From positions 405,188-469,187 of the forward strand of contig CAWJKM010000007.1 in the NCBI GenBank assembly GCA_963843525.1: DNA of 64,000 bases, in the 5' to 3' direction. How positions within the stretch are numbered: position 1 is the first letter of the stretch; each line of letters starts with the position of its first letter. Of the stretch, positions 2,483-64,000 are shown piece after piece. The DNA is from Ignavibacteriota bacterium. GTDB taxonomy: Bacteria; Bacteroidota; Ignavibacteria; UBA10030; UBA6906. The position numbers were made by a program, and so were the translations under genes. Under the pieces are notes generated by a model. It did no database searches. It had not been told where the DNA came from and saw only the letters and a list, made by a program, of their open reading frames with translations.

Positions 2483-5400
2483 ATGACGCTGGTGCTTCTC
2501 GCATCAATCCACCCCGGGAAAGTTCTTGCGCTTGACCCTCATAAAAGTATCGGCCAATACGGGCACGATGTCTGGCTGCGACAAAACGGCCTCCCGGCAA
2601 ATATCGTGAATACCCTCCTCCAGTCCAGCGACAGCTATCTCTGGGTCGGAACGACATCAGGCCTCTATCGTTTCGATGGCGTCCGCTTCAGCGAATGTTC
2701 CCTTGACACGCAGAAGCAGAAAATCTCAGAAACCATCGCCGCCGTGTGTGAATCGTCGGACAGGAGCATCTGGGTCGGAACGCTGTATGGCGGCCTGCGC
2801 CGCATTAAAGACGATCAGGTATCCATGTTCGGCGAAAAGGAAGGCTTGCCCGAACGGCAAATCCGAACCCTGTTCGAGAGCCGAGCCGGCCATCTCTGGG
2901 TGGGCACCACCAATGGGCTGTTTCGATCTTCTGGAAACACCTTTGTGCCCGTCCCCGTCGACCAGACCTTTTTCACCGGCATCACAGAGGATACCCAGGG
3001 AAGGATCTGGGTAGCAACTCATGACGGGGTCCGGATCTTCGACGATGAACGGATGACGTTGCTGCAGAGCCTCAGAACTGCAGAAGGACTCCCCGATAAA
3101 ATCACCACAGCGATTGCGTCGGATAGCAAGGGCAGTGTTTGGGTAGGGACTTCCCACGGTCTGTTCAAATGGAAGAACGGATCGACAACCGTGTATTCGA
3201 CAGGAAATGGCCTTCACAATGACCATGTCGGTGCAATGCATGAAGACAAAGACGGCAACTTCTGGGTCGGCACGTTTGGAGGTCTCTATCGCGAGCGCGA
3301 TGATGTCTGGACTTCCTTCACCGTGGATGACGGGCTGAGCAATAACCAGGTCCTCTCGATTACCGAAGATCGAGAGGGGAGTCTCTGGGTGGGAACACTC
3401 GAAGGATTGAATAGATTTAAAGATGTCAACCTTACGACGTATACCACGAAGGACGGGCTCGGTAATGACTACGTTTCAGGGATCGCCGAAACTCCTGACG
3501 GGGCAATCTACTTTCTCAGTAATGCAAACTCAACCGTTTCCTGCCTGCGAAACGGGCGGATGAGTACGTTTTCAAGCTCAGTCGGACCTACGTATGTCGC
3601 CCGCGACGGGAGCCTCTGGATCGGACAGAACGGCACACTGATCAATATCAGGAATGGACACATCACACGGTTCGATACCACTGCAGGTTTGCCCGCCAAG
3701 TGGATTTCCGCAATAACGGAAGATGCGCAAGGGTTGATCATCTTCGTGGATCATACCGGCTTGAAGAGATTTACCGGCGGTCGGGCCCGGCCTTTCCTCT
3801 TGCGGGATGGCAGGATGTATCCTTCCACGGAATACGTCGAATGTTTCTATACAGACCCCGGCGACACGCTATGGGTCGGGACGACAAATGGTCTCGTGCG
3901 AATGTATCGCGGGGAGTATAGCGTGTTCGGCACAGTCGATGGGATGGCCGATTACTGGGTGAGCGCCATCTATGATGATCACCGGGGAAGCCTCTGGTTT
4001 GGATCCGCGAATGGCGGATTGACCAGGTATTCGAACGGCAGGTTCACCGCCTACTCCGCGAAGAGCGGACTCTTCTCCAATGAGATCTATTGTGTTCTCG
4101 GCGATGCCCGGGGCGATCTCTGGCTGGGAAGTTCCCGGGGGATCGAGCACATTGCCAGAGCGGATCTGGATGGCTATGCAGCCGGAACATTGCCCGCGAT
4201 GTCGTCCCATGTTTATTCTATGGTGGACGGCATGAAGTCTGATGCATGCTTTGACGAGTGGCAACCCGCCGGAATCCGCGCGACAGACGGTCGCCTCTGG
4301 TTCTCAACGAAGAAAGGGGCGGTAATGATCGATCCGGGTGCCTTCAAACGGAACGAAGTCGTGCCGCCGGTCAGGATCGAGAAAGTGGTTGTCGAACAAC
4401 GAACAGTCGCTCCGGAACAGAAGCTGGTATTCGAGCCCGGCACAAAGAATCTCGAATTCCATTATACTGCCCTGAGTTTCCTGGTTCCCGAGCGCACGCT
4501 CTTCAAATACAAACTTGAGGGGTACGATCGAGACTGGGTGGAGGCTGGAACACGGCGCGCAGCCTATTATACGAGTCTCCCCCCCGGGAATTACCGCTTC
4601 CGGGTCATTGCCTGCAATAACGACGGACTGTGGAACGAAGACGGAGCGGACATCGGAGTAATCCTTACCCCGCACTTTTACGAGACATACTGGTTTACCG
4701 TCCTGGTTGCCGGTGTGATCCTGGCGTTAATCGTCCTCATTGTCAAGATGCGGCTCAGAACACTGCAGAGAAGGGAAAAGGAGCTCGAAAGAATCGTCCA
4801 TGTCAGGACAAAGGAGGTGCAGGATCAACGGTCCTTCCTTCGCAAAGTCATTGATTTGAATCCGAGCTTCATATTCGCAAAGGATTCTGAAGGGAGATTC
4901 ACCCTTGCCAACCGCGCGCTCGCTGAGGCATATGGGGCGACATCCGACGGCCTCATCGGAAGGACGGATGAGGCATTCAATCGTCACGGCGAGCAAGTGG
5001 ATAAATTCCGTGCCGATGATCGAGAAGTTTTTGAATCAAAGACGGAGAAGTACATCCCGGAGGAACGATTCACCGGGGCGGACGGCGAATCGCGTTGGCT
5101 GCAAGTCTCGAAAATCCCGATTACAAGCGAAGAGGGGACTGTGCAGCAGGTGCTTGCGGTAGCCACCGATATTACTGCGCAGAAAGCCGCAAAAGAAGTC
5201 GCCGAGGCCGCTACCCGTTCCAAAAGCGAATTCCTCGCAAATATGTCTCATGAAATCCGGACGCCGATGAACGCGGTGATAGGGATGTCCGGTCTTCTGG
5301 GCGACACAAATCTCGATGCAGAACAACGGGAGTTTGTCGATATCATCCGGACCAGTGGCGACACGCTGCTCACGATCATCAATGACATCCTGGACTTCTC

Positions 5401-6775
5401 GAAAATCGAGAGCGGCAAGCTCGAACTGGAAACCCAGGCGTTTGATTTGGCCCGTTGCATTGAAGATTCGCTGGACCTTCTTAGTTCAAAAGCATCCGAG
5501 AAGAGCATAGAACTGGCGTACCTCCTGGACGCGAGAACTCCCCGCGACATCGTGGGAGATAGGACGCGCCTCCGGCAAATCCTGATGAACCTCGTCGGCA
5601 ACGCTGTGAAGTTTACCCAAAACGGGGAAGTCATCGTTTCGGTCTCATCGAAATTGCTGCAGGATGATGAATATGAACTGCAATTTGCCGTTCGGGACAC
5701 CGGGATAGGCATACCGAAAGACCGGTTGGATCGATTGTTCAAGTCTTTCAGCCAGGTCGACTCTTCCACGACGCGGCACTATGGAGGAACGGGATTGGGG
5801 TTGGCGATCAGCAAGAGATTGAGTGAGATGATGAAGGGGAGGATGTGGGTGGAGAGCACGGAAGGGAAGGGTTCAACGTTCTCGTTTACGATCATCGCGA
5901 CGGCCGCGCCCAGCATTACCCGCGTGTCGCGGAAGGATGGGGAATTGCAGCTGGACGGGAAAGCGGTCTTGATTGTCGACGATAATGCGTCTAATCGACA
6001 GATCCTCACTCTGCAAACCCAGTCATGGGGAATGAAACCGACGGCTGTCGCTGACGGCCGCCAGGCCTTGGAGCTCCTCAAGCAAGAAAAGAAGTTCTCT
6101 CTGGCAATACTTGATATGCAAATGCCGGAGATGAATGGGGCACAGCTTTCCATCCAAATCCGCCGGACTTCAGGACTCCCGGCGCTTCCTCTCATATTGC
6201 TCACATCTGTGTCTGAGAGTAGCCGTCAATTGCGTGAACAGTATGGCGAGCTCAGCATTGCAGCCCATTTGAACAAACCCGTCAAATCGTCGCAGCTCTA
6301 TGAGACCATAGTCAGTGTTCTCGCCGATCACATAACAACAGAGCAAAAAGATCCGGTGAGCGAGGCCAAAGCTGTTGAGGGTGGTACAACGAGGAGACTC
6401 CGGATTCTGGTCGCCGAAGACAACGTGATCAATCAGAAAGTAGCCGTCCGGATTCTTGAACGATTTGGGTATCGTGCGGACATTGCTGCGAACGGCGTCG
6501 AGGCCATCGAAGCGATTCGCCGTCAGTCCTACGACCTGGTATTCATGGATGTCCATATGCCGGGAATGGACGGCCTCGAGGCAACACGGCACATTTGCAG
6601 CGAGTGGCCAACCGGGCGGCCCAAGATCATCGCGATGACTGCGGATGCGTTGCAGGGGGACCGTGAGCAATGTCTGGAAGCCGGCATGGACGGGTACATC
6701 AGCAAACCTGTCCGTGTAGAGGAACTGCGGACTATTCTGGAGAAGTATGAGGCGGAAGTCTGTGACCGCGTGTAG
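2483..6775 (+). CDS. Hybrid sensor histidine kinase/response regulator. Periplasmic beta-propeller + Y_Y_Y sensor, TM helix, PAS, HisKA/HATPase, and two receiver domains. No DNA-binding output domain.
   Basis: Repeated 'LWVGT..GL.R..G' propeller repeats; TM helix FTVLVAGVILALIVLIVKM; H-box SHEIRTPMNAVIGM; G-box GTGLGLAISKRL. REC1 is LIVDDNASNRQ...DMQMPEMNG; REC2 is ILVAEDNVINQ...DVHMPGMDG. The ORF is open from 2351. I prefer the ATG at 2483 because it begins a hydrophobic signal-like segment. Confidence 0.85.
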   Translation: MTLVLLASIHPGKVLALDPHKSIGQYGHDVWLRQNGLPANIVNTLLQSSDSYLWVGTTSGLYRFDGVRFSECSLDTQKQKISETIAAVCESSDRSIWVGTLYGGLRRIKDDQVSMFGEKEGLPERQIRTLFESRAGHLWVGTTNGLFRSSGNTFVPVPVDQTFFTGITEDTQGRIWVATHDGVRIFDDERMTLLQSLRTAEGLPDKITTAIASDSKGSVWVGTSHGLFKWKNGSTTVYSTGNGLHNDHVGAMHEDKDGNFWVGTFGGLYRERDDVWTSFTVDDGLSNNQVLSITEDREGSLWVGTLEGLNRFKDVNLTTYTTKDGLGNDYVSGIAETPDGAIYFLSNANSTVSCLRNGRMSTFSSSVGPTYVARDGSLWIGQNGTLINIRNGHITRFDTTAGLPAKWISAITEDAQGLIIFVDHTGLKRFTGGRARPFLLRDGRMYPSTEYVECFYTDPGDTLWVGTTNGLVRMYRGEYSVFGTVDGMADYWVSAIYDDHRGSLWFGSANGGLTRYSNGRFTAYSAKSGLFSNEIYCVLGDARGDLWLGSSRGIEHIARADLDGYAAGTLPAMSSHVYSMVDGMKSDACFDEWQPAGIRATDGRLWFSTKKGAVMIDPGAFKRNEVVPPVRIEKVVVEQRTVAPEQKLVFEPGTKNLEFHYTALSFLVPERTLFKYKLEGYDRDWVEAGTRRAAYYTSLPPGNYRFRVIACNNDGLWNEDGADIGVILTPHFYETYWFTVLVAGVILALIVLIVKMRLRTLQRREKELERIVHVRTKEVQDQRSFLRKVIDLNPSFIFAKDSEGRFTLANRALAEAYGATSDGLIGRTDEAFNRHGEQVDKFRADDREVFESKTEKYIPEERFTGADGESRWLQVSKIPITSEEGTVQQVLAVATDITAQKAAKEVAEAATRSKSEFLANMSHEIRTPMNAVIGMSGLLGDTNLDAEQREFVDIIRTSGDTLLTIINDILDFSKIESGKLELETQAFDLARCIEDSLDLLSSKASEKSIELAYLLDARTPRDIVGDRTRLRQILMNLVGNAVKFTQNGEVIVSVSSKLLQDDEYELQFAVRDTGIGIPKDRLDRLFKSFSQVDSSTTRHYGGTGLGLAISKRLSEMMKGRMWVESTEGKGSTFSFTIIATAAPSITRVSRKDGELQLDGKAVLIVDDNASNRQILTLQTQSWGMKPTAVADGRQALELLKQEKKFSLAILDMQMPEMNGAQLSIQIRRTSGLPALPLILLTSVSESSRQLREQYGELSIAAHLNKPVKSSQLYETIVSVLADHITTEQKDPVSEAKAVEGGTTRRLRILVAEDNVINQKVAVRILERFGYRADIAANGVEAIEAIRRQSYDLVFMDVHMPGMDGLEATRHICSEWPTGRPKIIAMTADALQGDREQCLEAGMDGYISKPVRVEELRTILEKYEAEVCDRV

Positions 6776-55529: not shown

Positions 55530-56351
55530 GTGTCCCTCTCCTGTCGGCTCGATCCAGCGTTACGCCGGAATATCCTCTCCTTCGTAGGTCTCATTGGCGT
55601 TCTCATCGTTTTTGCTCCATCGAGCGGCAGGTCAGGCGTCCTCTGGACCCAACTGCATATCGATTCGAGTCGGGCGGTGTTCCCTTCATCGCTGAGTTTT
55701 GCTCGCGTCGAGCCGGTCGATGGTGAATCGGGTTTGTTCCCGGTAAGCCTGGTGACTCTTCAGGATACTCCTGTTGTTGAGCATCATGAACCACGTCTTT
55801 TGCCTCCGTCGCTCAGCCCGGTTGAGAAAATCATTTGGGGAGAGAGCGGGTTCCTGCGTACCACCGGGATCGCGCCGCTGACCCCTTCTGCACGGATGAG
55901 TGAACTCCGATTCCGGAGGACCATGCTGACAATTCATCAGATCGGTGGGTTTGTGACCCTTGGTCTTCTTGTTCCCACCATCATCTATGGTCAACGCAAC
56001 ATCCAGAACTGGAACGATGCCATGATGGGCGTGCGCCCGCTCGACCGTCAGCTCAACCGGACCCATCGCATGTGGGCGGATCTTGCGTTCACATCCTATC
56101 TTGTCACGGCCGCGATGGCGATCCTCTCGCCGCCGCCGATCATCCGTCGCAATGAGGCAAGCACGATTACCACGCACAAGATTCTGGCATGGGTCCATTT
56201 CACGGGGATGATCGCCCTGCCCATTCTTGGCGCGCTTGCAGCACATGCCAACACTGCAGACCAGGCCAAGACACTGCGCACCGTACACGCGATCACTGCC
56301 TATACGACTGCGGCAGCACTCGCGACCGCCATGATTGTCATAACTTTTTAA
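55530..56351 (+). CDS. Hypothetical integral membrane protein
   Basis: An N-terminal TM, then 3-4 C-terminal TM helices (VTLGLLVPTIIYG, LAFTSYLVTAAMAIL, ILAWVHFTGMIALPILGALAAH, AITAYTTAAALATAMIVI). No recognised family. Confidence 0.35.
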   Translation: MSLSCRLDPALRRNILSFVGLIGVLIVFAPSSGRSGVLWTQLHIDSSRAVFPSSLSFARVEPVDGESGLFPVSLVTLQDTPVVEHHEPRLLPPSLSPVEKIIWGESGFLRTTGIAPLTPSARMSELRFRRTMLTIHQIGGFVTLGLLVPTIIYGQRNIQNWNDAMMGVRPLDRQLNRTHRMWADLAFTSYLVTAAMAILSPPPIIRRNEASTITTHKILAWVHFTGMIALPILGALAAHANTADQAKTLRTVHAITAYTTAAALATAMIVITF

Positions 56352-56363
56352 GGGGGGAGTCTC

Positions 56364-56942
56364 ATGGGAAAAGTCTTTCATGTTCTCACCGGCCTGGCGC
56401 TCCTTGTGACACTGGGCGCTGCACCGTTGCTCGCAGGTGCGCCGGTCCACCTGACGGCGCTCAAGGGGGATTCGTTCTTGAAATACATCCTTGTCCATCC
56501 ACTTCATCACGTGGAGGGTGTGAGCAAAGAGGTAACTTGCTCGATGGACTACGATGACGCGACACATACGGTCACGGCGGCGTCGTTTCAGGCCGATGTG
56601 GCATCATTTGACAGCGGGAACAGCAGCCGTGACTCGCACGCGATGGAGGTGCTTGACGCTCTGGAATACCCGGAGGTCTCCTTTACAAGCAAGAGCATCA
56701 CGAGTTCAGGACGGAACATGCAGGTTCAGGGGGATTTGACCTTTCACGGACAGACGAAACCCGTTGCATTCCCGGCCACGCTGGATGCGGCAGGATCGAA
56801 AATCTCCGTAGAAGGGAATGCCGCGGTGAGTCTCACGGCGTTCGGAATTGAACGACCATCCCTTCTTTTAATCCCGGTGGAGGACACGCTGCATATCTCC
56901 TTCACGATGGTCTTCCCGAACTCAGGTCTGTCGAGCAAATAA
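56364..56942 (+). CDS. YceI-family periplasmic protein
   Basis: Signal peptide, with length and beta-barrel composition typical of YceI-like polyisoprenoid-binding proteins (FTSKSITSSGRNMQVQGDLTFHGQTKPV). Confidence 0.55.
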   Translation: MGKVFHVLTGLALLVTLGAAPLLAGAPVHLTALKGDSFLKYILVHPLHHVEGVSKEVTCSMDYDDATHTVTAASFQADVASFDSGNSSRDSHAMEVLDALEYPEVSFTSKSITSSGRNMQVQGDLTFHGQTKPVAFPATLDAAGSKISVEGNAAVSLTAFGIERPSLLLIPVEDTLHISFTMVFPNSGLSSK

Positions 56943-56999
56943 TCGTTGGACAGGCTTCAGGACCACAGGGTGCGACATTCCATACAACAGAGGATACAC

Positions 57000-57476
57000 A
57001 TGGACACCAGTCTTCAAACACGGCGAGAATTCTTCATCCGTACTGCGCAGGCCGGTTCGCTCGTGGCATTGGGGGGAGTTCTCAGCACATTTCTCTCTGC
57101 ATGTAATTCCAACGGGAATAGTCTCGGGAATGCGCCGACGCTCCCGACCATCAAGGCTACCGTCTCGAACAATACGATCACGATTTCGACTGCATCCGGT
57201 TCTCCCATCGCAGGTGTCGGCAGTGCGGCACTGGTGCAGTATGGCAACGGGAATCTTCTGGTTGCGCATACCGCCCAGGATGCTTTCACGGTCCTGACGG
57301 CGATTTGCACACACCAGGGGTGCATTGTGGACGGATTCAGCGGCGGGATCTACACCTGCCCCTGCCACGGAGCCGAATACGATACCAACGGCAACGTGGT
57401 GCATGGGCCCGCCACGGCTGCTCTACGAAAGATTCCCGCCCAGTATGCGAATAACCAACTTGTCATTTCCGTTTGA
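57000..57476 (+). CDS. Rieske [2Fe-2S] domain protein, Tat-exported lipoprotein
   Basis: RBS AGAGGA before the ATG at 57000. Tat motif TRREFFIRTAQAG and lipobox LSAC. Rieske boxes CTHQGC and CPCHGAEY. ORF open from 56946. Confidence 0.75.
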   Translation: MDTSLQTRREFFIRTAQAGSLVALGGVLSTFLSACNSNGNSLGNAPTLPTIKATVSNNTITISTASGSPIAGVGSAALVQYGNGNLLVAHTAQDAFTVLTAICTHQGCIVDGFSGGIYTCPCHGAEYDTNGNVVHGPATAALRKIPAQYANNQLVISV

Positions 57477-57680: not shown

Positions 57681-58682
57681 ATGGTACCGCTCCCTCGCCC
57701 GGCATTATCTCTCGCCGTCCTTATCCTTGTTCTTCTCTCCTCCTGCGCCAAACGCGACTATCACGGCGTCGAGTCAAAAGACGTTTACCCTGTGCAGGAG
57801 GGTTATGTTGACGCTCATGGAGTTCTGATCTACTATACGATCGTGGGCAATGGAGCGCCGCTGCTGATCCTCCATGGCGGACCGGGGGCGTCGCACGACT
57901 ATTTCCTGCCCTACCTCCTTCCGCTTGCGCGCACGCACCGCCTCGTGTTCATCGACGAGCGGGGTTCCGGCCGATCGGAAAAGCTCGAAGATCCTGCGGG
58001 CTACACTGTTGAAACAATGGTTGAAGATGTCGAGGCTGTACGGGCGGATCTGGGGCTCGGAACCATCGATCTCCTCGGTCATTCCTACGGGGGAGTCCTG
58101 GCGCAGGCATACGCGTTGAAGTATCAGCAACACCTGAGACACCTTATTCTCTGCAGCACGTTTCAAAGCACGTCGAAAATGAACAAAGTGTTCGACGTCA
58201 TGAAACAACGGATGGCCGAACCTCTTCGCAAGCGCATTAACGCGATGGAATCGACGGGCCTGTTTGGCAAGGGAAAGGAATACGAACAGGGGAGATATCA
58301 ACCGGAGTACATGGTTGCTGCGTGGGGGGAAGGCTACTTTCCGTACTTGTATCAAAACCACCCCGATCCCAACTACGACCCCGTTCAGAATGGTGTAATG
58401 TCGTGGGACCTCTATCGGGAGATGTGGGGGTCGCATGGGGAATTCGTGATCGACGGGAACCTCTCGTCGGTCGAGTATGACGATCGCCTGGCGACGCTGA
58501 AGGTGCCGACACTGATCACGGTCGGCGACCATGACGAATGCGATCCTTCGTTGTCCCGGGAGATGCATAGCGAAATCGCAGGGTCGACATTAACAATCTT
58601 TCCCAAGAGCGGTCACATGACGTTTGTCGATCAGCCGGGGTTGTTCATCCGGACCGTGAACGATTTTCTTGGCGCCAAATAG
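57681..58682 (+). CDS. Alpha/beta hydrolase, proline iminopeptidase (S33) family, lipoprotein
   Basis: LILHGGPGASHDY (the HGGPG motif) and the nucleophile elbow GHSYGG. Signal peptide/lipobox LSSCAK. The upstream part of the track ORF (from 57489) contains the terminator, so the start is placed at 57681. Confidence 0.75.
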   Translation: MVPLPRPALSLAVLILVLLSSCAKRDYHGVESKDVYPVQEGYVDAHGVLIYYTIVGNGAPLLILHGGPGASHDYFLPYLLPLARTHRLVFIDERGSGRSEKLEDPAGYTVETMVEDVEAVRADLGLGTIDLLGHSYGGVLAQAYALKYQQHLRHLILCSTFQSTSKMNKVFDVMKQRMAEPLRKRINAMESTGLFGKGKEYEQGRYQPEYMVAAWGEGYFPYLYQNHPDPNYDPVQNGVMSWDLYREMWGSHGEFVIDGNLSSVEYDDRLATLKVPTLITVGDHDECDPSLSREMHSEIAGSTLTIFPKSGHMTFVDQPGLFIRTVNDFLGAK

Positions 58683-58716
58683 ATACCTGCCCAGCCAGGG
58701 CGGGAAGGAGAAAGTC

Positions 58717-59844
58717 ATGGTGCGCTCTTTGATGATGTTCCCGTTATTGGCACTCCTGAGCTTCGGCGGATTTGTCTGTGGGAAATCGGAGGAACGTTCC
58801 GTATCCACGAATGCGAGGGAATTACGATTCAAGGTGGCGCGATGCATCGATCGTGAAGGCATCGGGATAGAGGCGTTCAGCCTCCTCATTCCTGCAGATT
58901 GGGCCTTTGAGGCCGCAATACATTGGAATGTTCAAAATCCAGGCATGCCGGCGGTCGCGACCATGCGGACGATGAGCCCGGACAGCACGAAAGAAGTTGA
59001 CGTCTTTCCCAATCAATCGTTCTTTTGGACCGACAATCCCATGACCAGATCAATGTTCCCGGTCGGATCGCGGTACTTTGGGGCGGAGGTGCGCCCGGTT
59101 TTGCAGGTACGCGACATGCTGCGCCGGATTGTCCTACCGCGATTCCGCCGACACGCGAAAGAGTTGAAAGTCGTAAAGGAGGAAAACGTGCCTGCCCTCG
59201 CGCGAATCGCTGAAACCGGAAATTCTGCAGCGGCAAGCGGACTTTTCCACGCGGAAGGGGGCAAGATCAGAATTGAATACAGGACGGGAAACGCGTGGAG
59301 CGAGGAAGATCTCTACGGTGTGGTGGAAAGCTATGGGATACCTCTTCAGACGCTTTCCGGAAGTTCGACGAACACCATGTGGACTGCCGACTACCTCTTT
59401 TCCCTGAGAGCCGGCAAAGGCACACTCGACTCCAGCGGCCAGCTCTTTCGTGTCATTATCGGCTCTTTTCGTGTCAATCCGCAATGGTTCAACAGATACG
59501 GACAGGTCGTTGCCGCGTTGATCCGCGCAAACATCCAGCAGATCCATCGCGTGGGGGAGCTGAGTAGAATCATCAGCCGTACCTCGAACCAGATTTCCGA
59601 TGATATGCTCCGTTCATACAACGACCGCCAGAATGTGTACGACCGTCTTGCTGATGACTTCTGCAGGCATATTCGGGACGTGGATGCCTATTACGATCCG
59701 TATGCAGAAAAGGAAGTGGAACTTCCTGCGGGGTACAACCAGGCATGGACCAACAATCTCGGGGAGTACGTGATCAGCGAGGCCGAAGACTTCAACCCCA
59801 ATATCGGTTCGAACCTTCACTGGCAACGCATGGAAAAGAAGTAG
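58717..59844 (+). CDS. Hypothetical secreted protein
   Basis: RBS AAGGAGAAAG before the ATG at 58717. Signal peptide MVRSLMMFPLLALLSFGGFVCG. No family recognised. Confidence 0.4.
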   Translation: MVRSLMMFPLLALLSFGGFVCGKSEERSVSTNARELRFKVARCIDREGIGIEAFSLLIPADWAFEAAIHWNVQNPGMPAVATMRTMSPDSTKEVDVFPNQSFFWTDNPMTRSMFPVGSRYFGAEVRPVLQVRDMLRRIVLPRFRRHAKELKVVKEENVPALARIAETGNSAAASGLFHAEGGKIRIEYRTGNAWSEEDLYGVVESYGIPLQTLSGSSTNTMWTADYLFSLRAGKGTLDSSGQLFRVIIGSFRVNPQWFNRYGQVVAALIRANIQQIHRVGELSRIISRTSNQISDDMLRSYNDRQNVYDRLADDFCRHIRDVDAYYDPYAEKEVELPAGYNQAWTNNLGEYVISEAEDFNPNIGSNLHWQRMEKK

Positions 59845-60570
59845 TTATGGTGTCAGCTTGAACAGCCCTTCCGGCCGTGAACCTCGAAGTCCGGCCTCGT
59901 AGGAGCGGGGGTCAACTTTGGCCAGCCCCGCCACCATTCCCCTGGTCAGAAGGGGATACCGTCTCATCTTCTCAAGCTTCGCGGCAATGAGTTCCATTGT
60001 TTCCTCGCGCGTCATCCAGGCGCGGGAGGAGAAGGTCGTCAGCCGAAGCGGTCGCGTGTACCCCCGCAGCGTTTTCTCTCCCGCCACATTGAAGTACTGC
60101 TCGAAGTACGAAATTATGAGTTCCCGCAAAGTCCTGTGGATCGGCTCGCGGTAGCGGAGCCCCACGAAATTCGATTTCCCCAGTGCTCCCCAGGCTCCAT
60201 GCCGACGGAATAACGCCACCAGGTGCTCGTCGTCCCGGCTGTTCGGGAACATGTTGACGATGAGCGGCGGATGCCCGAGGAGACTCAGCATCCCCGCCCC
60301 AAAGACTGCTCCATCATAACAATGGGCTTGCCCGTCGCGGAGAACGCGGAGTGGCGAACGGTACGTGGACTCGGCACTGTACGTCATCCCATCCATGAAC
60401 GACTGGATAGCAAAGGGTGAACGAAGAGACTGCACGGTTCGTCGTTCGTTCGGCGTGAGGACACGGAGAAACTCGTCTCGATCGAGTATTGCCATTGGAC
60501 AGGGAAGCGGTTGTGGCAGTATGAGTGAGAGATAGTGTGGATGGTACGGAAATCGTCGCGACGTTGCCAC
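59845..60570 (-). CDS. Hypothetical protein, possibly transglutaminase-like cysteine-protease fold
   Basis: GQAHCYDGAVFGAGMLSLLGHPPLIV weakly resembles the transglutaminase-like Cys-containing core. Convergent with the upstream gene. Confidence 0.25.
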   Translation of the reverse strand: MATSRRFPYHPHYLSLILPQPLPCPMAILDRDEFLRVLTPNERRTVQSLRSPFAIQSFMDGMTYSAESTYRSPLRVLRDGQAHCYDGAVFGAGMLSLLGHPPLIVNMFPNSRDDEHLVALFRRHGAWGALGKSNFVGLRYREPIHRTLRELIISYFEQYFNVAGEKTLRGYTRPLRLTTFSSRAWMTREETMELIAAKLEKMRRYPLLTRGMVAGLAKVDPRSYEAGLRGSRPEGLFKLTP

Positions 60571-60723
60571 CCCTGAATGAAATGCAAAACCTGCGACGAT
60601 ACATTCTCAAGAATTGGAAAGCTCGAGGTCGGGCCAACATGATTATTAGATAATATATGATAACGTGCATTGGCATGAAACCTGATGATCTAGACTATAG
60701 GTTTTGGAGCCAGAGGAACACTT

Positions 60724-61230
60724 ATGCAGAATTTCGACCAGGACACATCGGTTTATTCGATTGGCAGCGTGGCGCGCAGGCTGGGAGTCTCCGTCCAGAC
60801 CCTGAGGCTGTACGAAGCCGAGGGGATGATTCTCCCGACGAAATCCGGTGGGGGGCAGCGGCGATACTCTGAGAGGGATGTGAAGCGCCTGGAATGCATT
60901 CGTCAGGCAATCGTGAAGGACGGGATCAGTGTTGCCGGGATACGGCGGATGCAATCCCTCGTGCCCTGCTGGTCGATCGTCCATTGTACGGAAGCAGAAC
61001 GGGTCGTCTGTCCTGCATTCCGCGACCATGACGGCGGTTGCTGGACCTATAAGCACGCAGACAACGTGTGTTCCGGTAAAGACTGCCGGCTCTGTGAAGT
61101 GTACCAGCTCTCCTCGACCTGTGAAGGAATAAAGCAAATCATTTCAAGGACCACCATCGTTCCGCGGACGGAAGTGCGACCGGCGCGTGCCGCGGACGGC
61201 GGGAAATTGGAGAGAGAGACCAGCGTATGA
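60724..61230 (+). CDS. MerR-family transcriptional regulator with a C-terminal 7-cysteine domain
   Basis: MerR HTH (YSIGSVARRLGVSVQTLRLYEAEGMILPTKSGGGQRRYSERDVKRLECIRQ). C-terminus: CWSIVHC...CPAF...GGCW...CSGKDCRLC...STC. The stop overlaps the start of the cytochrome gene (ATGA). Confidence 0.7.
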   Translation: MQNFDQDTSVYSIGSVARRLGVSVQTLRLYEAEGMILPTKSGGGQRRYSERDVKRLECIRQAIVKDGISVAGIRRMQSLVPCWSIVHCTEAERVVCPAFRDHDGGCWTYKHADNVCSGKDCRLCEVYQLSSTCEGIKQIISRTTIVPRTEVRPARAADGGKLERETSV

Positions 61231-62804
61231 AACGGATTCTTCTAGGCGTTGTTCTGGTTCTCGTGATCATGGGAGCAATTCTCACATCTCTGGACCGAAA
61301 AACGAGTGAGCCGTCCGACATCGAGCTGTTGCGGCAGCGTTATTCGCAGAAGCATTCGGAATCGGTGGACCATTCGAAATTCACCCAGCTGCAAAAGCAT
61401 TTCAACAAACCCCAGGAAGTGACCGCAGCGTGCATCGGCTGCCACAACGGCAGGGCAAGCGAGGTGATGCGCTCCTCCCACTGGAACTGGGAGTCGGAAC
61501 AATACATCGAGGGCAGGGGGATTCGAGCGATAGGGAAGAAGAATATACTCAACAACTTCTGCATCGGCACCGCGGGGTCGCATCAAAGCTGCAACAAATG
61601 TCATATCGGATATGGGTGGGGGGACAAAGGGGAGTTCGACTTCACTGACTCGTTGAACGTCGATTGCCTCGCGTGCCACGATAACAGCAATACCTATATC
61701 AAGGGGACAGGCATGGCCGGGTATCCCGACTCTTCCGTTGACCTGAACAAGGTGGCGCAGTCGGTGGGGAGACCGACACGCGTCACGTGCGGAACGTGCC
61801 ACTTTTTCGGTGGCGGGGGAAACAATGTAAAGCACGGGGACCTGGAGATGTCCATGTTCGATCCCTCGCGAAGCGTCGACGTGCATATGGGATCTGATGG
61901 CGCCGATATGCAATGCGTGGATTGTCATACTGCGACACAACATCAGATGAAGGGGAAATCGTTTGCCGTCTCCTCCATGAATCGTGGTCTCGTGGCGTGC
62001 CAGGATTGCCACACGGCGATGCCCCACGACAGCGAAGTCCTGAATGAACATACGTACAAGGTGGCGTGTGAAACATGCCATATACCGATCTACGCAAAGG
62101 TCAACAAGACGAAAGTCTATTGGGACTGGTCAACCGCCGGCAAACTTCGCAACGGGGAACCGTACGAAGTGCGGGACACGTCGGGCTATGATTCGTACCT
62201 GTCCATCAAAGGATCATTTGTGTGGGCGAAAAATCTTGTCCCCGAGTATGTCTGGTCGAACGGGACTGCCACGCATTATCTCCTCGGGGACACGATCACG
62301 ACTGTCCCGATCCGGCTGAACGATCTTCATGGGAGTTACAGCGATCCCGATGCGAAGATCATCCCGGTGAAAATCTCGCGGGCGAAACAACCGTACGATG
62401 AACGGTACCACTGGCTTATCCAGCCGAAGTTGTTTGGCGAGAAGAAGGGGGAAGGTGCCTTCTGGGAGGATTTTGACTGGAACCAGGCGGCAAAGGAAGG
62501 GATGGCTGTCGTCGGGAAGCCGTTCAGCGGCGACATGGGCTTTGTGGAAACGGAAATGGTTCTACCCGTCAATCACATGGTCTCGCCCAAAGGACAGACC
62601 GTTCAGTGCATTGAGTGTCACACGAGGAACCACTCCCGGCTTGCCGGGCTGAAGGACTTCTACCTGCCCGGTCGTGACCACAATGCAGCCATCGACGGCG
62701 CGGGACTACTCCTGATCGGTCTCTCCCTTGCAGGAGTTGTTACGCATGCCACTATCCGCATCATGTCCAATCGACGTCACAAGGAGGGGAGTCATCACGC
62801 ATGA
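61227..62804 (+). CDS. Octaheme c-type cytochrome, tetrathionate-reductase (OTR) family-like, membrane anchored
   Basis: Eight CxxCH motifs (CIGCH, CNKCH, CLACH, CGTCH, CVDCH, CQDCH, CETCH, CIECH) in 525 aa. N-terminal signal-anchor and C-terminal hydrophobic helix. The size and heme count match the OTR family. Confidence 0.7.
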   Translation: MKRILLGVVLVLVIMGAILTSLDRKTSEPSDIELLRQRYSQKHSESVDHSKFTQLQKHFNKPQEVTAACIGCHNGRASEVMRSSHWNWESEQYIEGRGIRAIGKKNILNNFCIGTAGSHQSCNKCHIGYGWGDKGEFDFTDSLNVDCLACHDNSNTYIKGTGMAGYPDSSVDLNKVAQSVGRPTRVTCGTCHFFGGGGNNVKHGDLEMSMFDPSRSVDVHMGSDGADMQCVDCHTATQHQMKGKSFAVSSMNRGLVACQDCHTAMPHDSEVLNEHTYKVACETCHIPIYAKVNKTKVYWDWSTAGKLRNGEPYEVRDTSGYDSYLSIKGSFVWAKNLVPEYVWSNGTATHYLLGDTITTVPIRLNDLHGSYSDPDAKIIPVKISRAKQPYDERYHWLIQPKLFGEKKGEGAFWEDFDWNQAAKEGMAVVGKPFSGDMGFVETEMVLPVNHMVSPKGQTVQCIECHTRNHSRLAGLKDFYLPGRDHNAAIDGAGLLLIGLSLAGVVTHATIRIMSNRRHKEGSHHA

Positions 62805-63454
62805 AACGGGAATATGTGTATAAGGCCTTTGAACGCTTCTGGCATTGGACGCAGGCCGTGCTCATCCTGTTTCTGGGGGTGACGGGTTTTGAGATTCACG
62901 GTTCGATCTCCTTCTTCGGATACGATCAAGCCGTCCGGTATCATAGTCTTGCAGCGTGGGCGTTCCTCGCGCTGATTGCCTTTGCGATCTTCTGGCATGT
63001 CACCACCGGTGAATGGCGGCAATATCTGCCCACGTGGCACAACCTGCGGGCCCAGGCGGAATTCTATCTCATCGGCATCTTCCATAATGCACCGCACCCG
63101 ACGCGAAAAACCGTCCTTAGCAAGCTGAACCCGCTCCAGCGTCTTGTGTACCTCGGACTTAAAATCCTCGTGATTCCGGTGATGGTGTTTTCCGGGTTGT
63201 TGTACATGTTCTACCGGTATCCGCAGCGCCACGAAATCGTTGCACTGAACATCAGCGGTCTTCAGCTCGTTGCGTTCATTCATACGGCGGCAGCCTTTCT
63301 CCTGGTCGCGTTCGTTATCGTGCACCTGTATCTGATCACTACGGGAGAAACGCCCACGTCAAACCTTCGTGCGATGATCACGGGATGGGAAGACCTCCCG
63401 CACGCAGAGAGTCATGCTCCCAAACGGGCAGTTCAGGAAGGAGTCCCGTCATGA
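62801..63454 (+). CDS. Di-heme cytochrome b, PhsC/FdnI/HyaC-like (PF01292) quinol-interacting membrane subunit
   Basis: ERFWHWTQAVLILFLGVTG is the RxxHW motif of the Ni/Fe-hydrogenase b-type cytochrome family. Four TM helices with conserved His. ATGA overlap with the upstream cytochrome c. Confidence 0.65.
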   Translation: MKREYVYKAFERFWHWTQAVLILFLGVTGFEIHGSISFFGYDQAVRYHSLAAWAFLALIAFAIFWHVTTGEWRQYLPTWHNLRAQAEFYLIGIFHNAPHPTRKTVLSKLNPLQRLVYLGLKILVIPVMVFSGLLYMFYRYPQRHEIVALNISGLQLVAFIHTAAAFLLVAFVIVHLYLITTGETPTSNLRAMITGWEDLPHAESHAPKRAVQEGVPS

Positions 63455-63963
63455 AAACACAGTACATGAATCCCTATCTGGCCGGCGTCCTTCTCGGGCT
63501 GGTGCTGCTCGCCTCAGTGTTCATCACCGGACGTGGATTAGGAGCCAGCGGAGCGCTCAAAAGCGTTGTGGTGGAGGGTGTGAGCGTTGTGGCTCCCACT
63601 CACCTCCAGTCGGGGGAATTCTACAAAGAGTTCAGCTCAGGTCATTCCGGCAGCCCGCTCAAGCAGTGGCTCGTGTTTGAAATGCTGGGGGTGGCCATTG
63701 GAGCATTCTTCTCCGGTGTCGTTTCAAAGCGACTGAAGTGGACCACGGAAAAGGGCCCTCACGTGGGGGGCGGCTTACGCATCGGACTTGCCGTACTCGG
63801 CGGAGCCCTCTTTGGAATTGGAGCCCAGTTCGCACGGGGGTGCACAAGCGGGGCGGCGTTGAGCGGGATGGCGGTACTCTCCACCGGCGGATTCATCACG
63901 ATGATGGCAATTTTCGGCACCGGGTATGCCGTTGCCTTCTTTTTCCGAAAACTCTGGCTCTAG
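63451..63963 (+). CDS. YeeE/YedE-family (DUF395) sulfur-compound transporter, half-size protein
   Basis: RBS AGGAAGGAG before the ATG at 63451, which overlaps the cyt b stop. GCTSGAALSGMAVLSTGG matches the conserved Cys-containing YeeE/YedE motif. A second ATG at 63976 probably starts the partner half (window-truncated). Confidence 0.6.
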   Translation: MKTQYMNPYLAGVLLGLVLLASVFITGRGLGASGALKSVVVEGVSVVAPTHLQSGEFYKEFSSGHSGSPLKQWLVFEMLGVAIGAFFSGVVSKRLKWTTEKGPHVGGGLRIGLAVLGGALFGIGAQFARGCTSGAALSGMAVLSTGGFITMMAIFGTGYAVAFFFRKLWL

Positions 63964-64000
63964 GAGGAGGCGACTATGGGACCATTTGTGCCTGACTTCA

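Follow-up and report, generated by a model that had tools for sequence, protein, structure and literature searches.

A conserved operon linking a MerR-type regulator, an octaheme cytochrome, cytochrome b and split YeeE proteins in Ignavibacteriota: a candidate quinol-dependent sulfur reductase

Introduction

The end of contig segment CAWJKM010000007.1 of assembly GCA_963843525.1 (Ignavibacteriota bacterium) analysed here, a stretch of 64,000 nucleotides (nt) referred to below as the window, holds a compact group of respiratory and transport genes. The open reading frame (ORF) listing and its translations place four complete ORFs and the beginning of a fifth on the + strand of positions 60724-64000. 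They encode a MerR-family regulator with an eight-cysteine C-terminal domain, an octaheme cytochrome c of the OTR (octaheme tetrathionate reductase) family, a cytochrome b and two halves of a YeeE/YedE-type transporter, the second of them fused to a rhodanese-like domain. From gene content and family relationships it is considered probable that this operon specifies a reductase, bound to the membrane and dependent on menaquinol, that acts on a sulfur compound in oxidised or zero-valent form, together with a module for sulfur import or relay and a regulator of its own. The substrate would most likely be tetrathionate or an S-S species of the polysulfide or thiosulfonate type. A sulfur-respiration operon had already been proposed at this position by a sequence-only reading of the window, and family tests as well as gene context in other genomes now lend support to that proposal as a predicted function.

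Structure of the operon

The regulator gene (60724-61230, 168 amino acids, aa) is followed on the same strand by the genes for the octaheme cytochrome (61227-62804, 525 aa), the cytochrome b (62801-63454, 217 aa) and YeeE/YedE half A (63451-63963, 170 aa). The gene for half B and its rhodanese-like fusion starts at 63976, and 8 codons of it (63976-64000) precede the window end. ATGA start/stop overlaps at 61227, 62801 and 63451 couple the first four genes; this coupling had been noticed by the sequence-only reading, and all four ORFs and the three overlaps were found at the positions it gave. The continuation beyond the window was obtained from a near-identical contig of a metagenome-assembled genome (MAG), locus L081 (GCA_049587695.1), which shows 16 mismatches over 3277 shared nt (99.5 % identity). 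This contig was reached through a look-up with the cytochrome b, and exact look-ups with the window MerR and OTR proteins gave no contig. Past the window end, L081 continues with the 397-aa fusion gene and a gene for a DUF4890 lipoprotein of 122 aa. Of the terminator-like hairpins in the region, the strongest stands only after this sixth gene. In a scan of the + strand restricted to spacers of 16-18 bp, no sigma-70-type promoter was detected upstream of the regulator or inside the operon. The overlaps, the lack of an internal sigma-70-like promoter and the late position of the hairpin point to a single transcription unit, a conclusion held as probable jointly with the function proposed above. 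In the L081 MAG, filed under Bacteroidota, NCBI names the products MerR family regulator, tetrathionate reductase family octaheme c-type cytochrome, cytochrome b/b6 domain protein and YeeE/YedE thiosulfate transporter family protein; three of these proteins are identical to those of the window, and the cytochrome shares a 90 % cluster with its counterpart.

The octaheme cytochrome and its cytochrome b partner

The 525-aa cytochrome, which begins with a hydrophobic signal or anchor, scores 562.8 bits on TIGR04315 (cut-off 375) over model positions 1-440 of 440, and 208 bits on PF11783. Its match to 1SP3, the OTR of Shewanella oneidensis, reaches E=1.5e-121 with ~50 % identity over 410 residues. 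The protein had previously been described as an eight-CxxCH cytochrome of OTR size and type; the profile search confirms the OTR family for it, and placement in a family other than OTR did not occur. The CxxCH motifs lie at residues 69, 122, 147, 188, 230, 258, 281 and 461, and eight such motifs are present in all 22 OTR orthologues, in the same order as in the S. oneidensis enzyme. In the HMMER alignment, Lys104 (codon 61536-61538), the first lysine of a GKKN sequence, falls on position 56 of the 1SP3 chain, where GKKN is also found, and GK[KR]N is invariant among the 22 orthologues and 1SP3. We take position 56 of 1SP3 to be the lysine ligand of haem 2, the active-site haem of the S. oneidensis protein, a role that Mowat et al. 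2004 reportedly assigned to K56.

The window enzyme and its 22 orthologues differ from the soluble S. oneidensis OTR in what follows the last haem motif. 1SP3 ends just past this motif in the alignment, whereas all the orthologues continue with a tail of 53-73 aa that contains a hydrophobic segment (Kyte-Doolittle maximum 1.76-2.53). In the window protein, hydropathy and ortholog alignment predict a single transmembrane (TM) helix at 62685-62765, with a conserved histidine of this OTR clade in the context GV..H...R. A further difference is genomic, as the genes of the orthologues stand directly 5' of a cytochrome b gene and overlap it. The tail helix is a possible dock to this cytochrome.

The cytochrome b is of the HyaC/FdnI/PhsC type and scores 96.5 bits on PF01292. 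Its best NCBIfam match is PhsC (NF011582) with 110.7 bits, under the equivalog cut-off of 204; the earlier description as a quinol-oxidising cytochrome b of PhsC/FdnI type is thus sustained at the level of the PF01292 family and not at that of the PhsC equivalog. His15, 33, 48, 66 and 99 are conserved in 17 of 17 sequences, and His161 and His175 in 16 of the 17; these residues presumably include the positions expected for two b-haems. The protein is presumed to act as quinol oxidase and membrane dock of the complex.

Conservation and gene context in other genomes

The strongest argument for a sulfur substrate comes from the company that the regulator keeps. A scan with one genome per species recovered 54 loci with a full-length regulator relative. 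In loci of the OTR type, found in Ignavibacteriota / Bacteroidota MAGs, the order MerR-OTR-cytochrome b-YeeE half A is complete in 21 cases and cut by a contig end in 5 more, and the fusion of YeeE half B with the rhodanese-like domain comes next wherever the sequence continues. Recurrence at the level of species shows that this arrangement is not due to chance. In 11-13 loci of a second type (Psr), from Ignavibacteriota, Calditrichaceae and Acidobacteriota, the regulator is accompanied by a PhsA-like molybdoenzyme (490-540 bits to NF012032, under the cut-off), an FeS subunit, NrfD, both YeeE halves and a rhodanese-like protein with a cysteine at its tail. A cytochrome-rhodanese type is represented by 6 loci of Lentisphaeria and Neomarinimicrobiota, in which the regulator stands with an eight-CxxCH cytochrome of another kind, a tandem rhodanese of lipoprotein type and an anchored six-haem cytochrome. 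This cluster may encode another, uncharacterised sulfur reductase. Its octaheme protein is 435-518 aa long and remotely OTR-like, with no NCBIfam match (L043 10633-14187, L044 10612-12934, L046 10417-12437). In the SQR type, a second paralogue of the regulator heads clusters of type III SQR (681 bits), DsrC and DsrE2, including one in cultured Melioribacter roseus P3M-2. There (L083 9001-13682) the eight-cysteine paralogue precedes SQR-HMP-DsrC-DsrE2 and a Toluene_X outer-membrane channel. The second paralogue was seen in L083, L029 and L030, so two regulators can stand before different sulfur operons in a single genome. Among cultured organisms, the regulator family is carried by M. roseus, Melioribacter sp. 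Ez-97, Stygiobacter electus and Rosettibacter firmus, to which a MAG assigned to Ignavibacterium album can be added.

Throughout the loci examined, nearly all neighbours of the regulator are genes for the handling of sulfur, and it is chiefly on this ground that a sulfur compound is proposed as the substrate of the OTR and a sulfur-related signal as the input of the regulator. It could be argued instead that the OTR works physiologically on nitrogen oxides, in nitrite or hydroxylamine reduction, NO detoxification or ammonification, and that the sulfur genes are co-located for other reasons, given that other lineages have octaheme relatives that serve as nitrite reductases (PMC12142623). Such a function appears improbable here. 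In 21 genomes, translational coupling or tight linkage joins the enzyme to two YeeE halves and a rhodanese-like domain; the same regulator and transporter module occurs elsewhere with PhsA-like, SQR and DsrE genes and, in the loci examined, never with recognisable nitrogen-cycle genes; and the window protein contains no CxxCK haem motif.

The YeeE halves and the rhodanese-like fusion

Half A, of the PmpA/YedE type, matches PF04143 with 64.7 bits (cut-off 27) at model positions 175-308, the C-terminal half of the model, and carries the conserved cysteine of a GCTSG motif (Cys131). Half B is available at full length in L081 (gene 4701-5894, 397 aa; PF04143 and PF00581). Its orthologue in L001 (13214-14413) matches PF04143 with 58.2 bits over positions 10-194, the N-terminal half, which is also the part matched in L081, and GG[YF]CPGTS is invariant across 18 half-B sequences. 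The prediction that the operon ends in YeeE/YedE half-transporters is therefore upheld by PF04143, with the qualification that only one half lies fully in the window. The further label of thiosulfate-uptake type is probably too specific, because split pairs of the YedE1E2/PmpAB kind import zero-valent sulfur. It has been demonstrated that CpYedE1E2 imports zero-valent sulfur and not thiosulfate, and that it needs one cysteine per half (PMC10812762); a heterodimer with one essential cysteine per half has also been proposed for PmpA/PmpB or YedE1/YedE2 (PMC11582611). The thiosulfate transporter equivalogs (TsuA/YeeE; NF041049 and NF052577) are not reached by the present proteins (16 bits versus 645, and 37 bits versus 400), and the NCBI name for a protein identical to half A is YeeE/YedE thiosulfate transporter family protein. 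Like PmpAB/YedE1E2, the two genes form an adjacent pair whose products each cover one half of PF04143 and each carry one conserved cysteine. They differ in length, with 170 and ~230 aa for the halves here versus ~130 aa, and in the addition of a TM helix, a rhodanese-like domain and a GGC tail to half B.

This addition gives half B the order YeeE half, extra hydrophobic/TM helix, rhodanese-like domain (PF00581, 45.9 bits in the L001 orthologue) and C-terminal GGC. The cysteine of the rhodanese catalytic loop is missing in 18 of 18 fusion proteins and in 5 stand-alone, TM-anchored relatives, and all 18 fusions possess a Lys-rich stretch and the C-terminal GGC, one of them ending in GGCGA. In Psr-type loci the rhodanese-like protein is separate, has an N-terminal membrane anchor, lacks the catalytic cysteine and ends in [DE]GC (L037 15407-16039; L048 9314-9943; L085 13330-13995). 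The lipoprotein rhodaneses of Lentisphaeria and Marinimicrobia, on the other hand, do keep the catalytic cysteine. The rhodanese-like domain probably faces the periplasm. The tail recalls SoxY, a sulfur carrier with what we take to be a C-terminal GGCGG swinging arm: both have Gly-Gly-Cys at the extreme C-terminus, both are probably periplasmic and both belong to a sulfur pathway. Nevertheless, the fold is rhodanese-like here, a SoxZ partner is missing and lysines abound in the tail, so that the resemblance concerns the motif only and is a lead rather than a classification.

The regulator and its eight-cysteine domain

The regulator's N-terminal half is a winged helix-turn-helix of the short HspR/GlnR/TnrA-like type, with 66.3 bits on PF13411 and 44.5 bits on PF00376. 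A fold search with the full-length model returned only MerR-type matches to this N-terminal part (GlnR/TnrA/MerR structures). None of the characterised MerR subfamilies fits, as 18 NCBIfam matches all remain far under their cut-offs, the best being HspR (65.6 bits versus 105). A plain HspR-type heat-shock repressor was considered and rejected on account of this score, the sulfur-gene targets and the extra cysteine domain.

The C-terminal domain (residues 80-140; 60961-61143 on the + strand) is the presumed sensor. It contains C82, C88, C96, C106, C116, C121, C124 and C133 in the pattern PCW-x4-C-x7-C-x9-CW-x9-C-x4-C-x2-C-x8-C, and one more cysteine, C58, lies in the DNA-binding half. The sequence-only reading was right about a Cys-rich C-terminus and had counted seven cysteines where there are eight. 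All eight are invariant in 22 of 22 aligned homologues, and the full spacing is kept in 110 of 112. No Pfam match, no sequence relative in the PDB and no fold match in the structure search were obtained for the domain. A profile search against 1.84 billion representatives retrieved 378 proteins, mostly MerR fusions, the remaining architectures being stand-alone mini-proteins, TM-anchored forms, chemoreceptors, a histidine kinase, an HD-GYP protein and an OmpR-type/MerR fusion. Among the sampled relatives from this search, 7 of 65 match NF045718 (two_CW_domain), with a best E of 8e-27. The window regulator itself reaches 10.6 bits on this model (cut-off 35) and two relatives 14-15 bits. The MerR-borne domains share with NF045718 the two CW motifs and further cysteines at matching spacing; six cysteines are common to the whole superfamily, and C116 and C133 are found in the MerR branch only. 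The domain is best described as a distant, divergent relative of the uncharacterised two-CW domain, within a sensor-like superfamily and through a link that is transitive only. No paper on the two-CW domain and no described function for it were found in the literature.

Examples of these architectures (P0165, P0170, P0221, P0255 and P0243) include a C-terminal position on methyl-accepting chemotaxis proteins (MCPs), twice in tandem, on an HD-GYP protein and on a histidine kinase, as well as an OmpR-type/MerR double regulator. The domain also occurs behind a single TM helix in proteins of ~110 aa, or on its own at 60-90 aa.

A sensory function of the domain is suggested by this distribution, and the nature of its signal can be approached through three alternatives. 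One of them regards the cysteines as structural zinc sites, with the signal relayed by a partner protein, in the manner of DnaK with HspR or of glutamine synthetase with TnrA/GlnR. Fusion of the module to unrelated outputs (MCP, HisKA/HATPase, HD-GYP), and its occurrence alone or behind a TM helix, are typical of an autonomous sensor domain and leave this explanation with little probability. Somewhat less improbable, yet still unlikely, is an Fe-S cluster in a regulator that serves as a general oxygen or redox switch of the FNR or SoxR kind for anaerobic respiration, and not as a sulfur sensor. Ligands for one or two clusters could be provided by the eight invariant cysteines, redox sensors are likewise found on chemoreceptors, kinases and HD-GYP proteins, and in one locus a peroxiredoxin gene lies beside the regulator. 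However, the regulator is found at the head of SQR clusters too, and these are not specific to anaerobiosis; its targets are almost exclusively sulfur genes. Expression data speak to the same question. In M. roseus, Gavrilov et al. reported that psrA is preceded by the MerR-like gene MROS_1773, and that this psr locus is silent or negligibly expressed in aerobic, microaerobic and strictly anaerobic fermentative cultures and strongly induced in arsenate-grown cells (PMC5492636). Silence during anaerobic fermentation argues against a plain anoxia switch.

The same induction, described as dramatic, led those authors to propose Psr/Phs as the arsenate reductase (PMC5492636), and it is compatible with either a sulfur species or a thiophilic metalloid as the signal. 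The regulator might in that case sense arsenite or thioarsenate, with the reductases serving arsenic respiration or detoxification. Multi-cysteine sites bind As(III), which speaks for this explanation. Against it, ars or arr genes are absent from the 54 loci examined, where the constant partners are YeeE, rhodanese, DsrE, DsrC and SQR, and we know of no arsenate chemistry of octaheme OTR proteins. Furthermore, arsenate in reduced media might yield sulfane sulfur or thioarsenates abiotically, so that induction may be indirect. Membership of the eight-cysteine family at the MROS_1773 position was seen in a congeneric strain only, Melioribacter sp. Ez-97, in which the gene at the equivalent position belongs to it. 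Taken together, an arsenic-centred system is regarded as very unlikely.

The conserved upstream element

Within 100 nt 5' of the regulator gene, the sequence TGGCA[CT]-N5-[TC]TG is present in 39 of 51 loci from several phyla, versus a background of 0.01 per 100 nt. The window copy, TGGCATGAAACCTGA (60671-60685, + strand), lies 39 nt before the merR start codon and is the sole match in the 64 kb. The element is found in cultured Melioribacter as well (L083 8947; L085 7953). Its geometry, TGGCA-N6-YTG, is that of a sigma-54 -24/-12 promoter; TGGCA and the spacing are canonical in the 39 loci, and the '-12' C is present in only 19 of them. Dyads follow or overlap the element in many loci, such as TTGTATTTATAAATACAA in L016, CTGTATT-N4-AATACAG in L044 and GCTA-N10-TAGC in most OTR loci, and in the window's own upstream region no dyad other than an AT-rich palindrome was found. 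The element is itself partly palindromic (TGGCA-N7-TGnnA) and could for this reason be the operator. It may thus be read as either a promoter or an operator. MerR-family regulators classically act at sigma-70 promoters with an over-long spacer of 19-20 bp that contains a dyad operator. No target of this class was found upstream of the regulator, a weak test given that the scan covers spacers of 16-18 bp.

Proposed function and mechanism

In the reductase proposed here, the di-haem cytochrome b would oxidise quinol and pass the electrons to the eight c-haems of the OTR. The latter would be held at the periplasmic face by its C-terminal TM helix and docked to the cytochrome b, much as formate dehydrogenase-N and NiFe hydrogenase attach their electron-transfer subunits to a cytochrome b of this type. 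The sulfur substrate would be reduced at the Lys-ligated haem, both this topology and the reductive direction being predictions. The two YeeE halves may form a PmpAB/YedE1E2-like heterodimer for the uptake of sulfane sulfur or thiosulfate, while the rhodanese-like domain may carry sulfur species on the terminal cysteine of its GGC. The MerR-type protein would bind the conserved element before its own gene, and its activity, in repression or activation, would shift when the eight-cysteine domain is modified by the import product through persulfidation, a thiophilic ligand or Fe-S chemistry.

A broader proposal can be made only tentatively, and it is viewed as possible rather than expected. The eight-cysteine domain would be a sensor of sulfane sulfur or a related thiophilic species and, with the split YeeE importer and the catalytically dead, Cys-tailed rhodanese-like carrier, would constitute a portable signalling module from periplasm to DNA. 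This module would be attached to at least four sulfur oxidoreductases (OTR-cytochrome b, PsrABC, the other octaheme cytochrome and SQR-DsrCE) in several phyla and act at sigma-54-like promoters.

Several points weigh against the sulfur reductase and its regulation as outlined. At the promoter level, the window copy of the element has GA instead of GC at '-12' (TGA). No gene for a sigma-54 enhancer-binding protein was found among the genes flanking the regulator in ten loci, which are of housekeeping kind (PPDK, peptidases, LeuRS, cytochrome bd), although an unlinked one is possible, and we know of no MerR protein that acts at a sigma-54 promoter. The Cys-rich domain could be purely structural and hold zinc, and the periplasmic placement of the rhodanese-like domain follows from hydropathy and the positive-inside rule only. 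As regards the enzyme, S. oneidensis OTR also reduces nitrite and hydroxylamine in vitro (PMC7509429), so that family membership leaves the substrate unfixed, and the Otr/Psr-based respirations predicted for Caldithrix abyssi were not confirmed in growth tests (PMC5317091).

Surroundings of the operon

The remaining genes of the window encode proteins sorted by the type IX secretion system, TonB-dependent receptors and glycoside hydrolases. No other sulfur-related genes were seen in the 64 kb, and Rfam and tRNA scans of the window gave no matches. On the 5' side the operon is adjoined by two ORFs with no Pfam match at E<=1e-4 (59845-60570, - strand, 241 aa; 58669-59844, + strand, 391 aa). Further 5', the region 55530-57476 contains a multi-hydrophobic ORF of 273 aa and the genes for a YceI-like protein (56364-56942) and for a small Rieske [2Fe-2S] protein whose N-terminus resembles a signal (56946-57476); no link of these genes to the operon was found. 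On the 3' side, the DUF4890 lipoprotein encoded between the fusion gene and the terminator (L081 5998-6366; L001 14505-14870) is Spy/CpxP-like, with two LTxxQ-like motifs. Its gene was rejected as a core member of the cassette, being kept only in the lineage of the window and its closest relative.

Relation to known systems

The operon combines proteins of known kinds, namely an OTR-type reductase connected to a cytochrome b, an importer of the PmpAB type and a regulator of the MerR type. A cluster of Otr and cytochrome b561 was described by Kadnikov et al. 2020 in the MAG of Ignavibacteriae bacterium Ch128a (PMC7509429). It has in common with the present locus the Otr-cytochrome b pair, the phylum and the interpretation as a quinol-linked terminal reductase; the paper makes no mention of a regulator, YeeE halves or a rhodanese-like fusion, the comparison being one of description and not of sequence. 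The order MerR-psrABC-DUF395x2-rhodanese was likewise reported by Thiel et al. for 'Ca. Thermonerobacter', M. roseus and I. album (PMC6338057). The eight-cysteine regulator family, the split YeeE pair, the Cys-tailed rhodanese-like protein and their order around the reductase are shared by both arrangements. They differ in the reductase, which consists there of a PhsA-like molybdoenzyme, an FeS subunit and NrfD and here of OTR and cytochrome b, and in the rhodanese-like protein, a separate TM-anchored product there and a fusion here. The sequence-only reading had regarded the combination of MerR, OTR, cytochrome b and YeeE as undescribed. No paper was found on an OTR version with this regulator and YeeE, nor on the Cys-rich domain itself, in agreement with that claim, although the Otr-cytochrome b pair (PMC7509429) and the MerR-psrABC-DUF395x2-rhodanese cluster (PMC6338057, PMC5492636) were already known. 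A precedent for import-coupled sensing is offered by the SoxT1B-SoxR pair of Hyphomicrobium denitrificans (PMC11582611), in which a YeeE-like membrane protein is also encoded with a sulfur-responsive transcription factor. SoxR and sHdrR are ArsR-type repressors with two cysteines and SoxT is full-length, whereas the regulator considered here is MerR-type with eight cysteines, and its functional link to the YeeE halves is suggested by gene association.

Significance

The most interesting features of the locus are a two-CW-like sensor domain common to four kinds of sulfur operon and a Cys-tailed pseudo-rhodanese. The physiological substrate of OTR-family cytochromes has been uncertain since the Shewanella structure, and a conserved operon in which the enzyme is tied to a quinol-oxidising cytochrome b, a sulfur importer and the regulator of a sulfur regulon supplies an argument, open to direct test, that the substrate is a sulfur compound in this widespread group of bacteria from sediments and the subsurface. 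Within the MerR family, the regulator may represent a new class of sensor for reactive sulfur (or thiophilic species), and a MerR-type protein acting at sigma-54-like promoters, if true, would be unprecedented. Cultured carriers make experiments feasible, and the ligand of the two-CW-like domain would annotate hundreds of signalling proteins.

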